A stretch of 63,987 bases of DNA, counting the filler, from Neolecta irregularis DAH-3 (Eukaryota): NCBI GenBank assembly GCA_001929475.1. It is 20 parts of 20 records of this genome, joined end to end, with 100 filler letters (N's around TTAATTAATTAA, not from the genome) between each part and the next. Parts side by side here need not be neighbours in the genome. Positions count along the whole stretch, not along the records: positions 48,637 to 55,592 come from LXFE01000202.1; 19 more parts are not named here. One strand, written 5' to 3'. Each line of letters starts with the position of its first letter. The stretch's first letter is position 1. Below the pieces are notes generated by a model. The model was not told the origin of the DNA. It saw only the letters and a program-made list of their open reading frames with translations, and did no database searches. A program made the translations under genes and the position numbers. This document shows, piece after piece, positions 48,436-55,974 of this stretch.

Positions 48436-48660
48436 CTCCTCCCCTCTTTCTCTTTTTGAAGGGAGTCACTATGTAACCGGCTCCTCTCTATAGAAGCTGA
48501 TTAGTGACGATATGTGGAGCTTCTGTGCTCGCTGATNNNNNNNNNNNNNNNNNNNNNNNNNNNNNNNNNNNNNNNNNNNNTTAATTAATTAANNNNNNNN
48601 NNNNNNNNNNNNNNNNNNNNNNNNNNNNNNNNNNNNCCCCCCCGCCCCGCTGACCCCCAG

Positions 48661-49007
48661 GAACGTCGGCTTCCTCCGCTACTACACCCTCAACAACATC
48701 CCAAACTTTCTGCTCGCTGCCCCCTCCTTCTACCTCCTCTTCTCAGACCTGCACGCCATCCCCGCCCGCTACAGACTCGTCCACCTCGCCCTCGCCCTCA
48801 TCGCCCTCTCCACCATGCATGTCCAGATCATCACCCGCGTCATGACCTGTCTCCCCTCCGTCGTCTGGACCCTCGCCCGCAAGGTCCGCTCAGGCTCCCT
48901 CCTCTGGGTCCGCTGGTGCATCGTCTATGCTGCCATCCAGGCCCTCCTCTGGGGTGCTCACCTGCCTGTATTTCCCTCCAAGAATCATCTCACCTTAGCC
49001 CGCCTGA
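48661..49007 (+). CDS. GPI18: GPI mannosyltransferase II (PIG-V), 3' part
   Basis: NVGFLRYYT.NNIPNFLLAAP, HVQIITR, ends LP|PA-stop. Confidence 0.9.
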
Positions 49008-49032
49008 TCTATTACGATGATCCAAACACTTG

Positions 49033-50270
49033 CTACTCAACTCTCTCCTGATACTCAAACACAGAAATCCCCACCTCCCTCAGCATCACACCCTTTTCGT
49101 TCATATCCACCCTCCGCAATACCATCGGTTCACACACAATCGTAATCCTGTCAATCCCCTCAATAGAATGATCCCCACTTTGTTCCAACACCCTCCCTTG
49201 ATCCACCTCCCGCGATCCTTGATCCTCCCGCGATCCCAAATTCATTCCATTCATTCCACTCATTCCTTCATTCATCGTTCCAACATCCACATCCCCCTCC
49301 TCGCACCGTATATCAATCGCAAGCTGATACGCCCGCCCACAAATCTTTGTCAATGAAGTATGTGCACTTTTAGTTGCACTCGTCGCAGGCAAATTCTGCA
49401 AAACATACCCTGAAAACATTCGAATACTCGCCTCTTCACGCTCGACCACATCATCCGTATTCAGCGTTTTAAAATACTCCACACGCCACCTCGTCGCTCG
49501 CTCGCGATTAACTGCAATTAGCATAAAAACTCCATTCCCATACCGCCGCATAACTTGTCGTACATCAACGCGAAACTATTCCCGATTTCAGCAATGGCCA
49601 GTGGATACAACCGCCCAAAAATCCACTCACATATATTCATAATCACGAATCCTCTAATCGCTGCAATCCTCAATTTCCGATTCCGTACCAATTCACCTTG
49701 AACTAGTCCCCACTCCGTCGGGATAATTCTCCCCAGCCACTCTTTCATCGTCGAGGATTCACTTATATTTGATCCCGGTACTTGATTTCTGAAATATTTT
49801 ACCGTCCATTGTCGTATTTCACTTACTATCTGACTCGTCCCTTCAATATAATACCGGTCATCTTTTAAATCTACATCACCAGGCCTATTCGCAACCACAA
49901 ACTGCGTTTTAATCTTTTCCGATTCTTGAATAATCTCAACAATTCGGCTTTCTAGTATCCGCTTTTCTAGTCGTTCGGCGTCTAATTGTTGCTTTAAACT
50001 CGTGGCCTTTTGTTCCAGTTTTTGATATTGTGTCGTTCGGATTTCGTCGTTTAGCGAATGCAGCGATAGCTCTGCGTTCAATCGGCTTGTCTTTTGCACT
50101 AATTCGTCGTTGGCTGATTTTAAGTCCATATCCCTTGTTACCCCATTCAACAGGGTTTCCGTTTCGTTTGGTCTACCCTCGCTCCCATCAGGGATTAATG
50201 GACTCGATTGATTGTCTGGTTTCTTTCCTTTGGATTTTCGTTTAGGAATAATCGCTGTCCATAGTTTCAT
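49033..50270 (-). CDS. Coiled-coil protein A (paralog of 51596-52873), intron 49512-49543
   Basis: Heptad-rich N-half; shared motifs with paralog B. Confidence 0.7.
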
Positions 50271-50666
50271 TGCGATGCTCTTTAAGTAGCAAATGGTGGA
50301 TAGATGGATCCTCAAAGGTTGAATCTTGATACCTCAAAGGTTGAATAGAAATTCGGGATAGCTCCGACTTTATAGGACAGCAACTGATCTACCGACTTTG
50401 CGATCCATTTGTACTTTTGGTACACGTCCTCGCGCGTGTCATACAAAAACGTGTTCGTTCAATGCACGTTTATTTCTATTCTTGATTACATAGTATACGT
50501 CATTCAATCACACTCGTTTTTTAACCTTCTGACCCAGCATTCTGTTATTACGGAAAAAGGTTTGCATGATATTGCGCATTTAAATAAAGTAGAGGCGTTG
50601 AAAGTCACTGAGCTAGCGTAATAAACCAGAAATTCAACATGCGAAACGTTTATTGACTACCCGAAA

Positions 50667-51419
50667 ATGACTGCAAAAAACTTTCTCCGACGGGGGATTA
50701 GCACCGCCCTCCTAATTTCGATTCCGTCTTTTTACTTTCTTCATACACCAGAGACCTCGCGATACTTGAATACAGAAACATTTGCTCCGTATGAAATTAC
50801 TGATACGGAAGCGGTTACCCCAAGTACTTTTAAAATCACCGTCTCGTCTAAATACCCACAACGAGGAATACATCTACCTAGAGATCTATACCACATTCAA
50901 ATCAAACATCCGCTAATTCAAGTGCAAAGACCGTATACCCCGATTTCTTCCGACGACGCTTGTACTTTGACGTTTCTTGTGAAAAAGTACAGGGATGGAG
51001 AGGTCTCGGGCTACATCCATTCCCTTTTTCCCGGCTCCGAAATACAGCTTCGAGGCCCTATAATTGACTACTCGATACCATCTCATGTCAAACAAATCAC
51101 TTTTATCGCTGGAGGAACGGGGATTACACCCGCCTTGCAATTATCTCGTTCTCGACCTGATTTATCAATATATATAATCCACGCGCATTCCAGCCGCGAT
51201 TTCCACCTCACAAAAGTCCCCCCCAACGTCGAATACACAGAAATTTCAAATCGACTTGTTTTAAAAGGGGATTTAGACGGTCGTAAAGGGACAGTATTGG
51301 TTTGTGGACCAGATGGTTTCATACAGTATATCGCTGGATCCAAAAATTTAGACGGCTCGCAGGGATTTATAGCCGGATTGCTAGGAGATCTAGGAGAATC
51401 CAATGTTTGGAAATTGTAG
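50667..51419 (+). CDS. CYC2: Mitochondrial cytochrome-b5 reductase-like flavoprotein Cyc2
   Basis: VQRPYTP, VKKY..GEVS.YIH, AGGTGITPALQ, VCGPDGFI..IAG.K, QG.I.GLL, VWKL. Confidence 0.75.
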   Translation: MTAKNFLRRGISTALLISIPSFYFLHTPETSRYLNTETFAPYEITDTEAVTPSTFKITVSSKYPQRGIHLPRDLYHIQIKHPLIQVQRPYTPISSDDACTLTFLVKKYRDGEVSGYIHSLFPGSEIQLRGPIIDYSIPSHVKQITFIAGGTGITPALQLSRSRPDLSIYIIHAHSSRDFHLTKVPPNVEYTEISNRLVLKGDLDGRKGTVLVCGPDGFIQYIAGSKNLDGSQGFIAGLLGDLGESNVWKL

Positions 51420-51595
51420 CATCTTATCTCGTGCATGAATATTTATACGATTCCGTTACATTATTAATATCAGACAAACGTTTGAGTCTAATGAATGCGG
51501 GGAGATCTCGGAAAGACTGAATTGTATTCCGAGTTTTGAGAACTTACTTTTGGTTTATGGACTCTAGAGAAATCTATTCACGACAGATCGAAGAC

Positions 51596-52873
51596 TTAGT
51601 CCTCCATTGGGTCATATCCTCTTACGAAATCCCCATCATACTCAATAGCGGCGTTTTCGCTGGCTGTTGGCAAGGCTTCATATTCAAACGTCACCCAAAG
51701 GACATCCCGAAGTACAACAGGCGCAAGCTTGGGATCGATAGACCGGGATATAGCTGGTTCGCAAGGTATTGCAATATTTGGGCTGTTCACAAGTGAATGA
51801 TTTCCGACTTTCTCCAGGTCTGAAAAATCCTTGTCCCGACAATCCAAAGTTATCGTGATATCCCCCTCTTCGCAGCGTGCATCCCAAGCCACTTTCAACG
51901 CTTTTGAAAGAATCTTTTTCACGGAACTCGACACACACGGTCGATTCGACGCCGTCATGAATGGAAACCCCATAACGATCCATTGCGTGTGAATTTCGAT
52001 ATCCAAAGCCTCGCGTTCGATAAGATCGCTTGTATTGAGAGTCTTAAAGTAATGTTTTCGCCACTTTTTGGCTTGATTTTCATCGACTATTCAAATTAAT
52101 GATATCAAAATGAGAATCTTACACTTTGCCATCTCTCCAAGCATGAATTGAAAAGCAGTAGATATTCCCGGCGGCTTCAAAGGATATATCGGTCCGAATA
52201 TATTTTGACAGAGAACGCTAATTATGAATCCCTTAAAAAGCGCTATCCTCAGTTTTTTGTTTACCACGATTTCAGCTTGAATATCCGTCCAACAAGTCGC
52301 ACACCTACTTTCGCACCAACGGCAAAAAGACGAATTCTCACTGTCGAAATCATTGTATTGCGATAAACCCGTTACTCGACGAAAGTATTTCACGACCATC
52401 TGTCGGATTTCAGAGCAGATTTGGTTTATCACGTCCGAGTAATGTTTATCATCGCGGGTGTCGACATCTCCATGCTTTGCAATCACAAACCGGGTTTTGA
52501 TTTGTTCGGATTCTTCAACTATTGACGCGAGCTGAACTTCAAGTTTTCTAGTCTTTGCTTTCTCGTTCACGCATTCCGTCTTCCAATCTTGGTAGCTATC
52601 TCGAAACCACTTCAATTCAGGTTTCCATTTCTTGTTGATTTCTTTTTCAAGATCATTAATTCTTTCCTCCCCGAGCAACAGTTTCTTGTTCAAGTCTTGG
52701 TTCTTTTTCTGGAGCTCTTCGATTTCTTTTCCCCGTTTCAAAACAAGATTTTTGATTTCCTCAATTTCGGGATCTCTTTCCGGCTTAAAGGCTTGACTTA
52801 AGAGCTGAGGTAAGCTGAATTTCGAAATCACGGTGACAGTCTTATTGAACATGACCAACAATGAAGCGAGCAT
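51596..52873 (-). CDS. Coiled-coil protein B (paralog of 49033-50270), one intron near 52.1 kb
   Basis: ESEQIKTRFV..GDVD..DD..Y, YFKTLNT, RCEEGD, CEP, FEY shared with A. Confidence 0.7.
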
Positions 52874-53102
52874 CACCTGGCATCACCTATCGCGAATCTT
52901 GTAGCAAGCACAGATGGCGATATCTGCAGCACCCTGTCGGTGTTTGCCACGCAAATGAAGTGGTATACAGGGGTTGGCAGGGATTGTAGATAAGGCAAGG
53001 TTACGCTAGGTTCTTTGTGGCCGTTAGGCACGCAACAAAAGTTGACTTGTCACTCAAGTTAAAGGCTGGCTGTTGTCTCATTACATTCTCAGCAATATCG
53101 AC

Positions 53103-55157
53103 ATGAAGCATCCAAGAATTCAAAGCCTCTCTCTTGATGACCAAAAAAATCATTTCGTGAGGAGCATCAAAAGTCTCTTCTGATAATTAAAAAGGTCGTT
53201 GGGATAGATTTTGGTACCACGTATTCCGGTGTTGCCTTTGCGTACTCTGGCGATACAGATACGATAGGAGTCATCAAACAATGGCCAGGGGCAAAACAAC
53301 GGACTAGTGAAAAGTAACATTCCGGCCCTCAAGCAAAATTACTGACACCGAGAGAATTGGGTCTCTTATTATATATGAAGGAGATGGAACAATCTCAGCT
53401 TGGGGGGCGCAAGCAGAAAACAAACCCCGAAAATCTGGCCAAACAAAAGCCCGATGGTTCAAATTGCTCCTCGACGACTCTCAGTCAAATTATCTCGTTA
53501 CGGCAACCCAATATGCAACCAAACCATTCGGAATGACAGCGGTGGAGGTTGCCACTGATTATTTGCGTCTGATAAATACCCATTTGATCAATCATCTCAA
53601 GACCACTTATGGATCTGGACTATTTGAGTGTACCCCGATCGAATACTTTGTCACTGTTCCTGCAATCTGGTCAGACAAAGCTCAAGCCATCACTAGAAAT
53701 GCTGCCATCAATGCCGGTATTCAGGGGAAACTGGAAATAGTGCGAGAGCCTGAAGCAGCTGCGATCGCGTGCGCACATTCTGGACACCTCATCTTTGAGG
53801 TATGTCATCATGCCCTTGCTAGACTCAGACGATAGGAAGGAGATCGGTTTCTTGTATGTGATGCAGGAGGTGGTACTGTAGATCTTATTTCCTACGAAGT
53901 TACTACTCCTCGACCACTAAAAATGAAAGAAATTACCATAGGAACAGGTATATTACAGTTGGCATTATCTTTTAAATTATAAAGGTGGCCTTTGCGGAGC
54001 AACTTATCTCGATCGAGAATTTGAAAAGCTGTTGAGAGAAAAGTTGAGCAAATACGGAGATCAATTTCTTAACGAGAAATCACTCGCTAGTCTTCTTCAG
54101 GATTTTGATGAATATCTTAAAGTCAATTTTGGTGAAGATGAAGATGAAGATGAGTTCAGCATCATCTTACGGGGGTGTGATATCGACGAAGATGAAGAAG
54201 CTGGAATATCTGCTGGGTGTCTTATATTCACTCGGTATGTATATCAAAGGAAGACGATTAATTGTGACTAGAGACGAGATTGTTCAAGTATTCGATCCCG
54301 TCATTAACAAAATCATCCAGCTTATTGAGGAACAAGTCACGAATTCAAAGGAGACAATCAAGGTATTTAGCATTACTCTGGAATGTTGACAAAGATCAAA
54401 AGACCATCTTTCTTGTGGGGGGGTTTGGTTCCAATGGCTACCTTCGTAACCGAATTCAAGGGAGATATCCACATATTTCCGTTCAACAACCTGTCGATGC
54501 GTATGAGGCTCGAGTCAAAGATATTCTCATATACTAGGTGGTCAGCTGTTGTTCGTGGTGCTGTCATTCATGGTCTACGAGAGAAAATTGTCACAGCTCG
54601 ACATCTTCGTCGAAGTTATGGAGTATCATGTAATTCGCAATGGGACCCTTTAATCCATGATCTGGATCAATACTATGTTTGTGAATTCACAGGACATGCA
54701 AGAGCCAATGATTGTATGAGTTGGTACGCAAGGATGGTGCGTTCTTTATACTTGAAGGTCTCCTGAGGTTTGACAGGGTCATGAAGTTCAACATGGACAG
54801 TCAATCAAGTTTCCATTTTGCCACAAAGTTGGTGAGAAGAAGGACCGATATGTTTATGATTTGCTCTGCTCAGATATCGAGAACCCACCCAGAAGGGCAA
54901 GTCATTGTATAATGCCTCCAAAATAAATGCTCTTCTGCTTACACTTTGTAGCATCTGTCACAGCATTAGGTCAAGTCGTGGTAAATTTAACCGACGATCA
55001 AAAGCAATTGTATCGAACGCGAAATTCTGTCACCGACGGTTTTGAATACTATGAACTATGTATCGATATTTCCATGAAATTCACAGCCTCATTACTCAAA
55101 TTCGAGATTCTTTTGGATGGAAAAGTGGCAGGCGAGGCAGTTATCAAGTATGAGTAG
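53103..55157 (+). CDS. Atypical Hsp70 (HSPA12-like actin-fold ATPase), multi-exon
   Basis: VGIDFGTTYSG, RWFKLLL, TVPAIWS, EPEAAA, VCDAGGGTVDL, CG.TYLD, LVGGFGSN.YL, AVVRGAV, RRSYG. Confidence 0.92.
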
Positions 55158-55974
55158 GTGAAACTATGACAGGCTCGAGAAATACCTGACTAATGTGAAA
55201 ATACACATATTTGTAGCCTTCATCAATTTTCTATGTCATAGCTCTAGGAGCCACTTGACAAAATATCGTTGATTTCATAGATTGGTGATTTTCAATCGCC
55301 TTTTACCGACTTTTGATACATTAAATTGCACTGATTCTTTTCTTGGCTTTTAATTGTAATTTGCTCATTATGCTGAATACGTCCACTGGTGAAGAGTAGG
55401 AAAATATCTTGGCTGAAAATGAGTATTTCAACAGAGAACTTGGGCAATCAGATTAGTTAATAACTGGAGGGTTGTTTGCAAAAACATATTCATCGTCATG
55501 TATCCTGAATCATTTTGTCAAAATTACAATCATCAATATGGATTCCAGCAATCTTACCACAGCAAATTTTTCAATTTTTCAAGACCAGACACNNNNNNNN
55601 NNNNNNNNNNNNNNNNNNNNNNNNNNNNNNNNNNNNTTAATTAATTAANNNNNNNNNNNNNNNNNNNNNNNNNNNNNNNNNNNNNNNNNNNNTTTTTTCA
55701 TTTGAGATGTTTATTCATTTTGTGCATATTCATTTTCGTTTGTGTCTTCTTTTTTTCGTTGTAGAGTGGAGTATACCTTGCTCATGATGATGGAGACGAT
55801 GATGACTAAAAGAATAGAATTCTTTTCTAGCTCTAGTGTGCGAAATTGGTCTAGGTAAATTTAATCAAGTGGGAGAGCAAGAAACTTAATTCTTCGCAAT
55901 TCTCACGAGAAATGATGTCAGCATGTCCCATTCCCGCATTATAAAAGCCACCGTGTCTTTTTTTCACTCGTTAA

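Follow-up and report, generated by a model that had tools for sequence, protein, structure and literature searches.

Head-to-head pairing of an HSPA12-type Hsp70 with a candidate GrpE-related partner in Neolecta irregularis and its recurrence across fungi

Within a stretch of 63,987 nucleotides from the genome of Neolecta irregularis DAH-3 (referred to throughout as the window), a gene for an atypical, HSPA12-type Hsp70 stands head-to-head with a gene for a coiled-coil protein, here called gene B, and a second member of the same partner family, gene A, lies beyond one intervening gene. The three genes share a single contig of 6,956 bp (G000:C3013; LXFE01000202.1) that occupies window positions 48637-55592 and has N-linkers on both sides. 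The pairing recurs across fungi, where we found a second local pair in the same genome and the same head-to-head layout at 19 of 80 metagenome loci. Judged by sequence profiles, the module appears to be an Hsp70 with a GrpE-related partner that belongs neither to GrpE nor to MIEAP, and the evidence suggests a remote relationship between the partner tail and the GrpE beta domain. Of the explanations considered, the most likely, at about even odds, has B acting as a dedicated GrpE-type cofactor for the Hsp70 that it faces.

Results

The Hsp70 and gene B are divergently transcribed

The head-to-head orientation of the Hsp70 and gene B on one contig, first proposed from inspection of the sequence, was confirmed by the gene models, with the two divergent start codons separated by 229 nt (52874..53102), an interval that probably holds a shared promoter. 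The Hsp70 gene (53103..55157, plus strand, ATG at 53103) is assembled from 10 exons (53103-53156, 53195-53313, 53355-53799, 53836-53947, 53985-54234, 54272-54362, 54403-54500, 54538-54736, 54777-54906 and 54952-55157) and encodes 567 residues; the nine introns are all GT-AG and 36-45 nt long, the spliced frame is open, and the product is identical to database protein P0005. Gene B, on the minus strand, is 413 residues long from its ATG at 52873, with the database model P0001 beginning 7 codons downstream. Exon 1 (52123..52873) encodes the N-terminal coiled coil (approximately residues 28-118 of P0001) and the first half of a helical domain, and exon 2 (51596..52086) encodes a WR helix, two more helices and a short beta tail apparently related to the GrpE-like tail of the bacterial partners described below. 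The intron between them (52087..52122) is 36 nt long.

The Hsp70 matches PF00012 with 40.4 bits (cut-off 20.6), placing the ATPase domain at approximately residues 19-401. K94 and E189 are invariant and D23 and D215 near-invariant among 67 sequences, and a profile built from the 67 relatives recovers DnaK (1dkg_D) with an E-value of 9e-28, positions 11-409 of its 578 being alignable to both DnaK and Hsc70. An adenosine motif is present, and the motifs for phosphate-1, for the catalytic Lys and Glu, and for phosphate-2 all fall in register; the ATPase is therefore probably active. No canonical substrate-binding domain (linker, beta-sandwich and lid) was found in the Hsp70, as the PF00012 match ends at position 371 of 599, the profile of relatives compared with full-length chains stops aligning at 409 of 578 and leaves their substrate-binding domain unmatched, and the C-terminal 160 or so residues have no match to that domain. 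Retained ATPase motifs and an absent lid are features of HSPA12A/B as well, although the putative membership of that group follows the source's name (heat shock protein 12B) and the domain layout. Many of the fungal relatives have PF27032 or PF27033 as their precomputed family.

Five partner-family genes and three HSPA12-type Hsp70s in one genome

Gene A (50270-49033, minus strand) encodes 401 residues identical to P0003 and is assembled from exon 1 (49544..50270), a 32-nt intron (49512..49543) and exon 2 (49033..49511), the last encoding helices and the beta tail with an insertion of approximately 20 residues. Its paralogy to B, claimed in the first-pass annotation, was borne out (35% identity over 357 columns, E 3e-61). 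Six of the seven motifs listed there as common to A and B occur exactly in both proteins, while the seventh is spaced otherwise (I.CEP...R.{10}LR.V.{4}FEY); the long N-terminal coiled coils are only loosely alignable.

Across the genome we counted five partner-family genes (A to E), three HSPA12-type Hsp70s and two head-to-head pairs. In the second pair (G000:C18; L011:4184-7623) the Hsp70 is 71% identical to the first and the partner, gene C, is 39% identical, with a gap of approximately 235 nt that is not alignable with the 229 nt between B and its Hsp70. The database model of the C18 Hsp70 (P0006, 496 residues) ends early, and the DNA holds a last exon matching residues 500-566. The synonymous divergence (dS) of the two Hsp70s is 1.30 over 481 codons and that of B and C is 1.49 over 274 codons, similar values that are consistent with duplication of the pair as a unit. 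Nonsynonymous divergence (dN) is 0.18 for the Hsp70s and 0.46 for B and C, giving dN/dS of 0.14 and 0.31, respectively; both genes of the pair are thus under purifying selection, and the partner evolves approximately 2.5 times faster than its Hsp70. Between A and either B or C the synonymous divergence is near or at saturation, which makes A older than the B/C split; the alternative of a recent tandem duplication of B was accordingly rejected.

The third Hsp70 (L013:4205-6180, minus strand; G000:C4312) is 30-50% identical by exon and clusters in the tree with both paired Hsp70s (support 0.81), and no partner-family gene was detected near it in the fetched flanks. Genes D (L206:3145-4600, plus strand; G000:C2646) and E (L207:2608-3827, minus strand; G000:C3111) are divergent family members on contigs without an HSPA12-type Hsp70, and D retains a clear ll.KA..w tail, as in the bacterial partners. 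All five genes have in common a phase-1 intron placed 8 codons ahead of a conserved Trp. A one-to-one scheme matching three partners to three Hsp70s fell once D and E were found, and, since D, E and the C4312 Hsp70 are all unpaired, the two-component module proposed earlier cannot be taken as a strict pair to which A is simply added as a spare.

The pairing recurs in fungal metagenome loci

Database searches with single sequences and with three sequences together returned only the three local paralogs, and a fourth match, P0004, was rejected as a family member because it is a repeat protein. The metagenome survey took in 80 loci from a confirmed set of 369 for related Hsp70s. In these, 8,149 six-frame open reading frames (ORFs) were searched, blind to position, with an iterative hidden Markov model (HMM) seeded only on the cores of A, B and C after trimming of the coiled coil (E<0.01). 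Twenty-six ORFs in 20 of the 80 loci were accepted, every one upstream of the Hsp70, and none was found in 209 kb of downstream flank, the upstream flank searched being 245 kb. Nineteen of the 20 partner-positive loci are head-to-head and only L042 is in tandem, with its partner 2.3 kb upstream. The binomial probability of this layout by chance is 5e-10, or 6e-9 when two redundant pairs are merged; a later profile brought in no further locus.

Upstream sequence of 1.5 kb or more was available at 46 loci, of which 20 carry a partner match. A FastTree phylogeny of these 46 placed 20 in one slow clade (L020, L031, L033, L064 and 16 more; support 1.0) and 23 on long branches, the remaining 3 being bacterial loci with a bacterial-type partner downstream. 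A head-to-head partner is present at 19 of the 23 long-branch loci. The four slow-clade members compared with named proteins share 80-97% identity with them, and this clade may represent the housekeeping member of the Hsp70 family. The tandem gene of L042 (2470-3657, plus strand) is a partner-family gene beside a slow-clade Hsp70 and is possibly that clade's conserved, usually unlinked partner.

The named proteins closest to the paired loci, within a reference of only 47 proteins, belong to Pezizomycotina genera. In the ESM Atlas the local genes have unnamed Ascomycota clusters as neighbours, for B with a cosine of 0.95 and template modelling (TM) scores of 0.52-0.55 and for A, by structure, with TM scores of 0.63-0.70. 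Intron candidates passing a strict filter were recovered in 6 of 12 split metagenome partner genes, all of them in phase 1, with five placed 7 codons before the Trp and one placed 10 codons before it. The median pairwise identity is 15% among partners and 39% among the Hsp70s.

Bacterial Hsp70 relatives carry a partner downstream

The bacterial survey covered 80 of 121 confirmed loci of related Hsp70s, mostly from filamentous cyanobacteria and actinomycetes, a host range that is biased because a single search pattern was used. Forty-five next-downstream ORFs cluster by BLAST, and an HMM built from the tails of 30 bacterial partners found the domain in 75 of the 80 loci, in each case sharing the strand of the Hsp70 and lying 0.76-2.1 kb beyond its match. 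When the best five families per protein were considered, one of the 45 partners passed the Pfam MIEAP threshold (L099, 28.5 versus 27 bits) and one more fell below it. Long ORFs overlapping the Hsp70 in L118, L163 and L169 were considered as fusions and dropped, as they start in another frame.

Several further features of the bacterial loci were recorded. In L114 (6655-8484) the partner is fused to an HTH_3 helix-turn-helix domain. Seven cyanobacterial loci (L095, L096, L097, L103, L105, L111 and L116) are operons with a double AAA+ ATPase, a zinc-ribbon coiled-coil protein and a second Hsp70-like gene, and a radical-SAM gene sometimes lies beside the pair as well. Just downstream of some pairs (L099:7948-10632, L172:7944-10394, L104:10914-11588 and L106:8572-11343) are dynamin-like, NB-ARC and Schlafen-nSTAND3 genes.

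The partner tail is linked to GrpE through the bacterial proteins

Profiles were compared with an alignment of 29 GrpE sequences by HHalign and calibrated against block-shuffled nulls. The bacterial partners matched GrpE with a probability of 91.7%, and in a second comparison with 92.7% and a score of 45.3 against a shuffled maximum of 28.0 (20 trials); a 19-row, mainly cyanobacterial subset reached 94.9%. The fungal family, represented by a 21-row full-core profile, matched the bacterial partners with 41% when all 75 were used and with 71% over 104 columns in a subset that was chosen afterwards; the respective scores were 32.3 (shuffled maximum 18.0) and 39.3 (shuffled maximum 19.8), each over 30 trials. 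Cross-searches of fungal and bacterial ORFs with C-tail HMMs gave no significant match, rank tests on them were set aside because unscored sequences distorted the ranks, and hmmsearch of alignments A4 and A5 against PDB sequences returned chance or coiled-coil matches only. Alignments A3, A7 and A9 misplace fragments and were kept out of the profile claims.

Among named Atlas families, MIEAP comes closest to B (cosine 0.85; TM 0.44 over 248 residues between predicted models) and also to A (cosine 0.80), where it is absent from the structure rows; these scores fall below the Atlas bar of 0.9 and the TM score below 0.5. A search of the genome with PF16026 gave no match, and the controls gave none either. 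Also among the named Atlas neighbours of A is the C-terminal domain of plant GIL1/IRKI proteins (PF24994, with DUF641; cosine 0.77-0.79), which is likewise below the bar and serves as a lead only, although its appearance beside MIEAP in the rows for P0003 hints that the tail domain may have a branch in plants as well.

The structure predictions were of uneven quality. The N-terminal helix of B (residues 28-118) had predicted local distance difference test (pLDDT) values of 60-74 over residues 31-90 and sub-threshold coiled-coil Pfam matches, and the full-length model, built from 3 sequences, had a pLDDT of 44 and was kept out of the fold search. With the exon-2 model of B, whose tail is of low confidence, the fold search for GrpE suggested at the outset yielded nothing clear: Foldseek returned no match at E<=0.001 in PDB or BFVD, and VIA aligned only a helical hairpin (best Z 6.4). 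Fold comparison in this form speaks neither for nor against GrpE. The description of A and B as GrpE- or Mieap-like therefore survives in part: the MIEAP link and the link to the GrpE beta domain by way of the bacterial partners stand, but direct HHalign comparison with GrpE gives 0.5-4%, and for the fungal proteins the term GrpE-like is founded on the two-step chain and the shared gene context.

Neighbouring sequence

Between A and B lies a gene for an oxidoreductase binding flavin and nicotinamide adenine dinucleotides (FAD/NAD; 50667..51419, plus strand; 250 residues; PF00970 and PF00175), which we place outside the module and for which CYC2 is the provisional name given in the first-pass annotation. 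The contig edge carries the 3' end of a PIG-V mannosyltransferase (PF04188; 48637..49051, plus strand), given here as context only; on the opposite strand, the last 19 nt of gene A (49033-49051) fall within this open frame, and the PIG-V end may splice differently. The adjoining contig (window 46126-48092) holds stop-broken pol fragments of a long terminal repeat retrotransposon (protease, reverse transcriptase and RNase H-like), identified by eye in the translated ORFs. On the contig of the second pair, approximately 3.5 kb from the end of the C18 Hsp70, a J-domain protein is encoded that has membrane segments and an HPD motif (L011:53-675, plus strand), which may be coincidence.

Discussion

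The arrangement described here, an Hsp70 ATPase gene linked to a long-helix protein that ends in a small beta domain, resembles that of DnaK-GrpE and of mitochondrial Hsp70-Mge1/GrpEL1 (PF00012 with PF01025), and the bacterial partners of HSPA12-type Hsp70s match the GrpE beta domain itself. In contrast to DnaK-GrpE, the Hsp70 here is without a canonical substrate-binding domain, the partner is larger, with an extra helical domain and no PF01025 match, and no conserved J-protein gene is seen in the module. Mieap/SPATA18 (PF16026) has the same succession of coiled coil, helical domain and beta tail and is the nearest named Atlas family, but A, B and C have no PF16026 match. GrpE speeds the release of adenosine diphosphate (ADP) from DnaK. 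By analogy, and starting from the observed gene models, the fungal and bacterial linkage, the co-duplication, the purifying selection and the remote homology chain, we favour, at about even odds, the reading in which B acts as a dedicated GrpE-type cofactor. The Hsp70 has its ATPase motifs but neither the canonical substrate-binding domain nor the lid, and B would combine a coiled coil, an enlarged helical domain and a small beta head putatively descended from a GrpE-type head. Dimerizing through the coiled coil, B would grip the ATPase domain with its helices and beta head and accelerate ADP release as GrpE does for DnaK, and the short divergent promoter would allow co-expression of matched partners. 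Gene A may work with this Hsp70 or with a different paralog, or it may pair with B as a heterodimer.

A number of results weigh against this cofactor reading. Three of the five family genes and one of the three Hsp70s in the genome are not head-to-head, no slow-clade locus has a head-to-head partner (0 of 20, with only L042 in tandem), and no partner was detected at 4 of the 23 fast-evolving loci. Over 16 pairs the partner and Hsp70 distances are correlated (rho 0.45; matched in 3 of 5000 permutations) and nearest neighbours agree in 13 of 16, which counts in favour of the cofactor reading, but since linked genes share a history anyway, this correlation speaks of history and not of contact. 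Within the homology chain, the match between bacterial partners and GrpE spans only about 50-60 columns, corresponding to the beta domain; the first comparison of the fungal C-half with the bacterial partners gave only 12.6%, rising to 36% and 60% with better profiles, before the post hoc subset was used. Directly compared with GrpE, the fungal family gave HHalign probabilities of 1.7%, of 0.5-0.6% with a score inside the null, and of 4.4% across the coiled coil only. Neither PF01025 nor PF16026 matches A, B or C or appears among the best 25 families over 32 alignment rows, and the GrpE motif G..FDP..HE is missing in A and B. Finally, the exon-2 model of B (pLDDT 73) has three confident helices and a beta tail below 50.

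Some of the same observations could be accommodated by a guard or conflict module, in which the lidless Hsp70 would act as a switch dependent on ATP, holding, sensing or releasing a coiled-coil effector or adaptor in non-self recognition or anti-viral defence. Head-to-head immune pairs are familiar in fungi, among them gasdermin-protease pairs and paired nucleotide-binding leucine-rich repeat receptors (NLRs). The concentration of paired copies in long-branched, fast clades beside a slow unpaired clade would fit such a role, as would a partner that outpaces its Hsp70 both in the local duplicates and in median identity, and 6 of 54 neighbours scanned are of dynamin-like (2), NB-ARC (1), Schlafen-nSTAND3 (1) or AAA_21 (2) type. 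Filamentous cyanobacteria and actinomycetes are moreover groups with described Hsp70-containing conflict systems, and in the available portion of that description Hsp70 and GrpE genes occur together in the GAP1-N2 GTPase systems, as operons of multicellular bacteria (PMC7159879). As far as the same portion goes, however, these systems are centred on GAP1-N2 GTPases with DnaJ or FNIII proteins, and it describes no HSPA12-type or MIEAP-like pair and no fungi (PMC7159879). The bias in bacterial hosts already mentioned also counts against a defence role, as do dN/dS values below 1, the many metabolic genes among the neighbours and the failure to find an effector domain in A or B; PADLOC, run on 28 proteins, gave no match on Hsp70s or partners and hit four neighbours only. 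We regard a guard function as unlikely.

With a similarly low probability, the partner might be a Mieap-like scaffold or targeting adaptor that works with the Hsp70 in organelle or membrane quality control, its beta head being a GrpE-derived docking module without exchange activity. MIEAP rather than GrpE is the nearest named family of both A and B and is the family that L099 passes in Pfam, the partners contain a helical insert of 100-150 residues that is missing from GrpE, the GrpE motif is eroded in fungi, and family members exist that are unpaired. Set against these points are the Atlas and TM scores, which lie under their respective bars. It is much less probable still that the linkage is purely historical, with ancestral neighbours copied by duplication and no functional partnership between them. 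The conserved Hsp70 clade and the three local family genes outside head-to-head pairs are what such a history would predict, but pairing has been kept while partner identity fell to approximately 15%, and it has been kept in two layouts, divergent in fungi and operonic in bacteria.

If the cofactor reading is extended to its full range, a single ancient two-gene machine, composed of a lidless HSPA12-type Hsp70 and a GrpE-derived, MIEAP-type partner, would be shared between fungi and filamentous bacteria, those paired copies of it that evolve fast would act in defence, and animal HSPA12A/B would use SPATA18/Mieap as their missing cofactor, a cytosolic GrpE-type factor. This wider proposal is speculative and we hold it to be improbable as a whole. 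The available excerpts of a 2026 review give the function of HspA12 as unknown, name no cofactor for it, report its expansion in bivalves and state that eukaryotes retained no cytosolic GrpE (PMC13580251). Our literature search, whose coverage did not extend to supplements and subscription journals, found no link between Mieap and HSPA12 and no description of the Hsp70-partner pairing.

A partner that stays linked to HSPA12-type ATPases in both fungi and bacteria is a candidate for the specific cofactor of an orphan branch of the Hsp70 family. The linkage is strong and names a cofactor that can be tested for its putative binding and fold, and the intron-free bacterial pairs offer a simple route to the biochemistry. 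The pairing also ties together two orphan families, HSPA12 and MIEAP.

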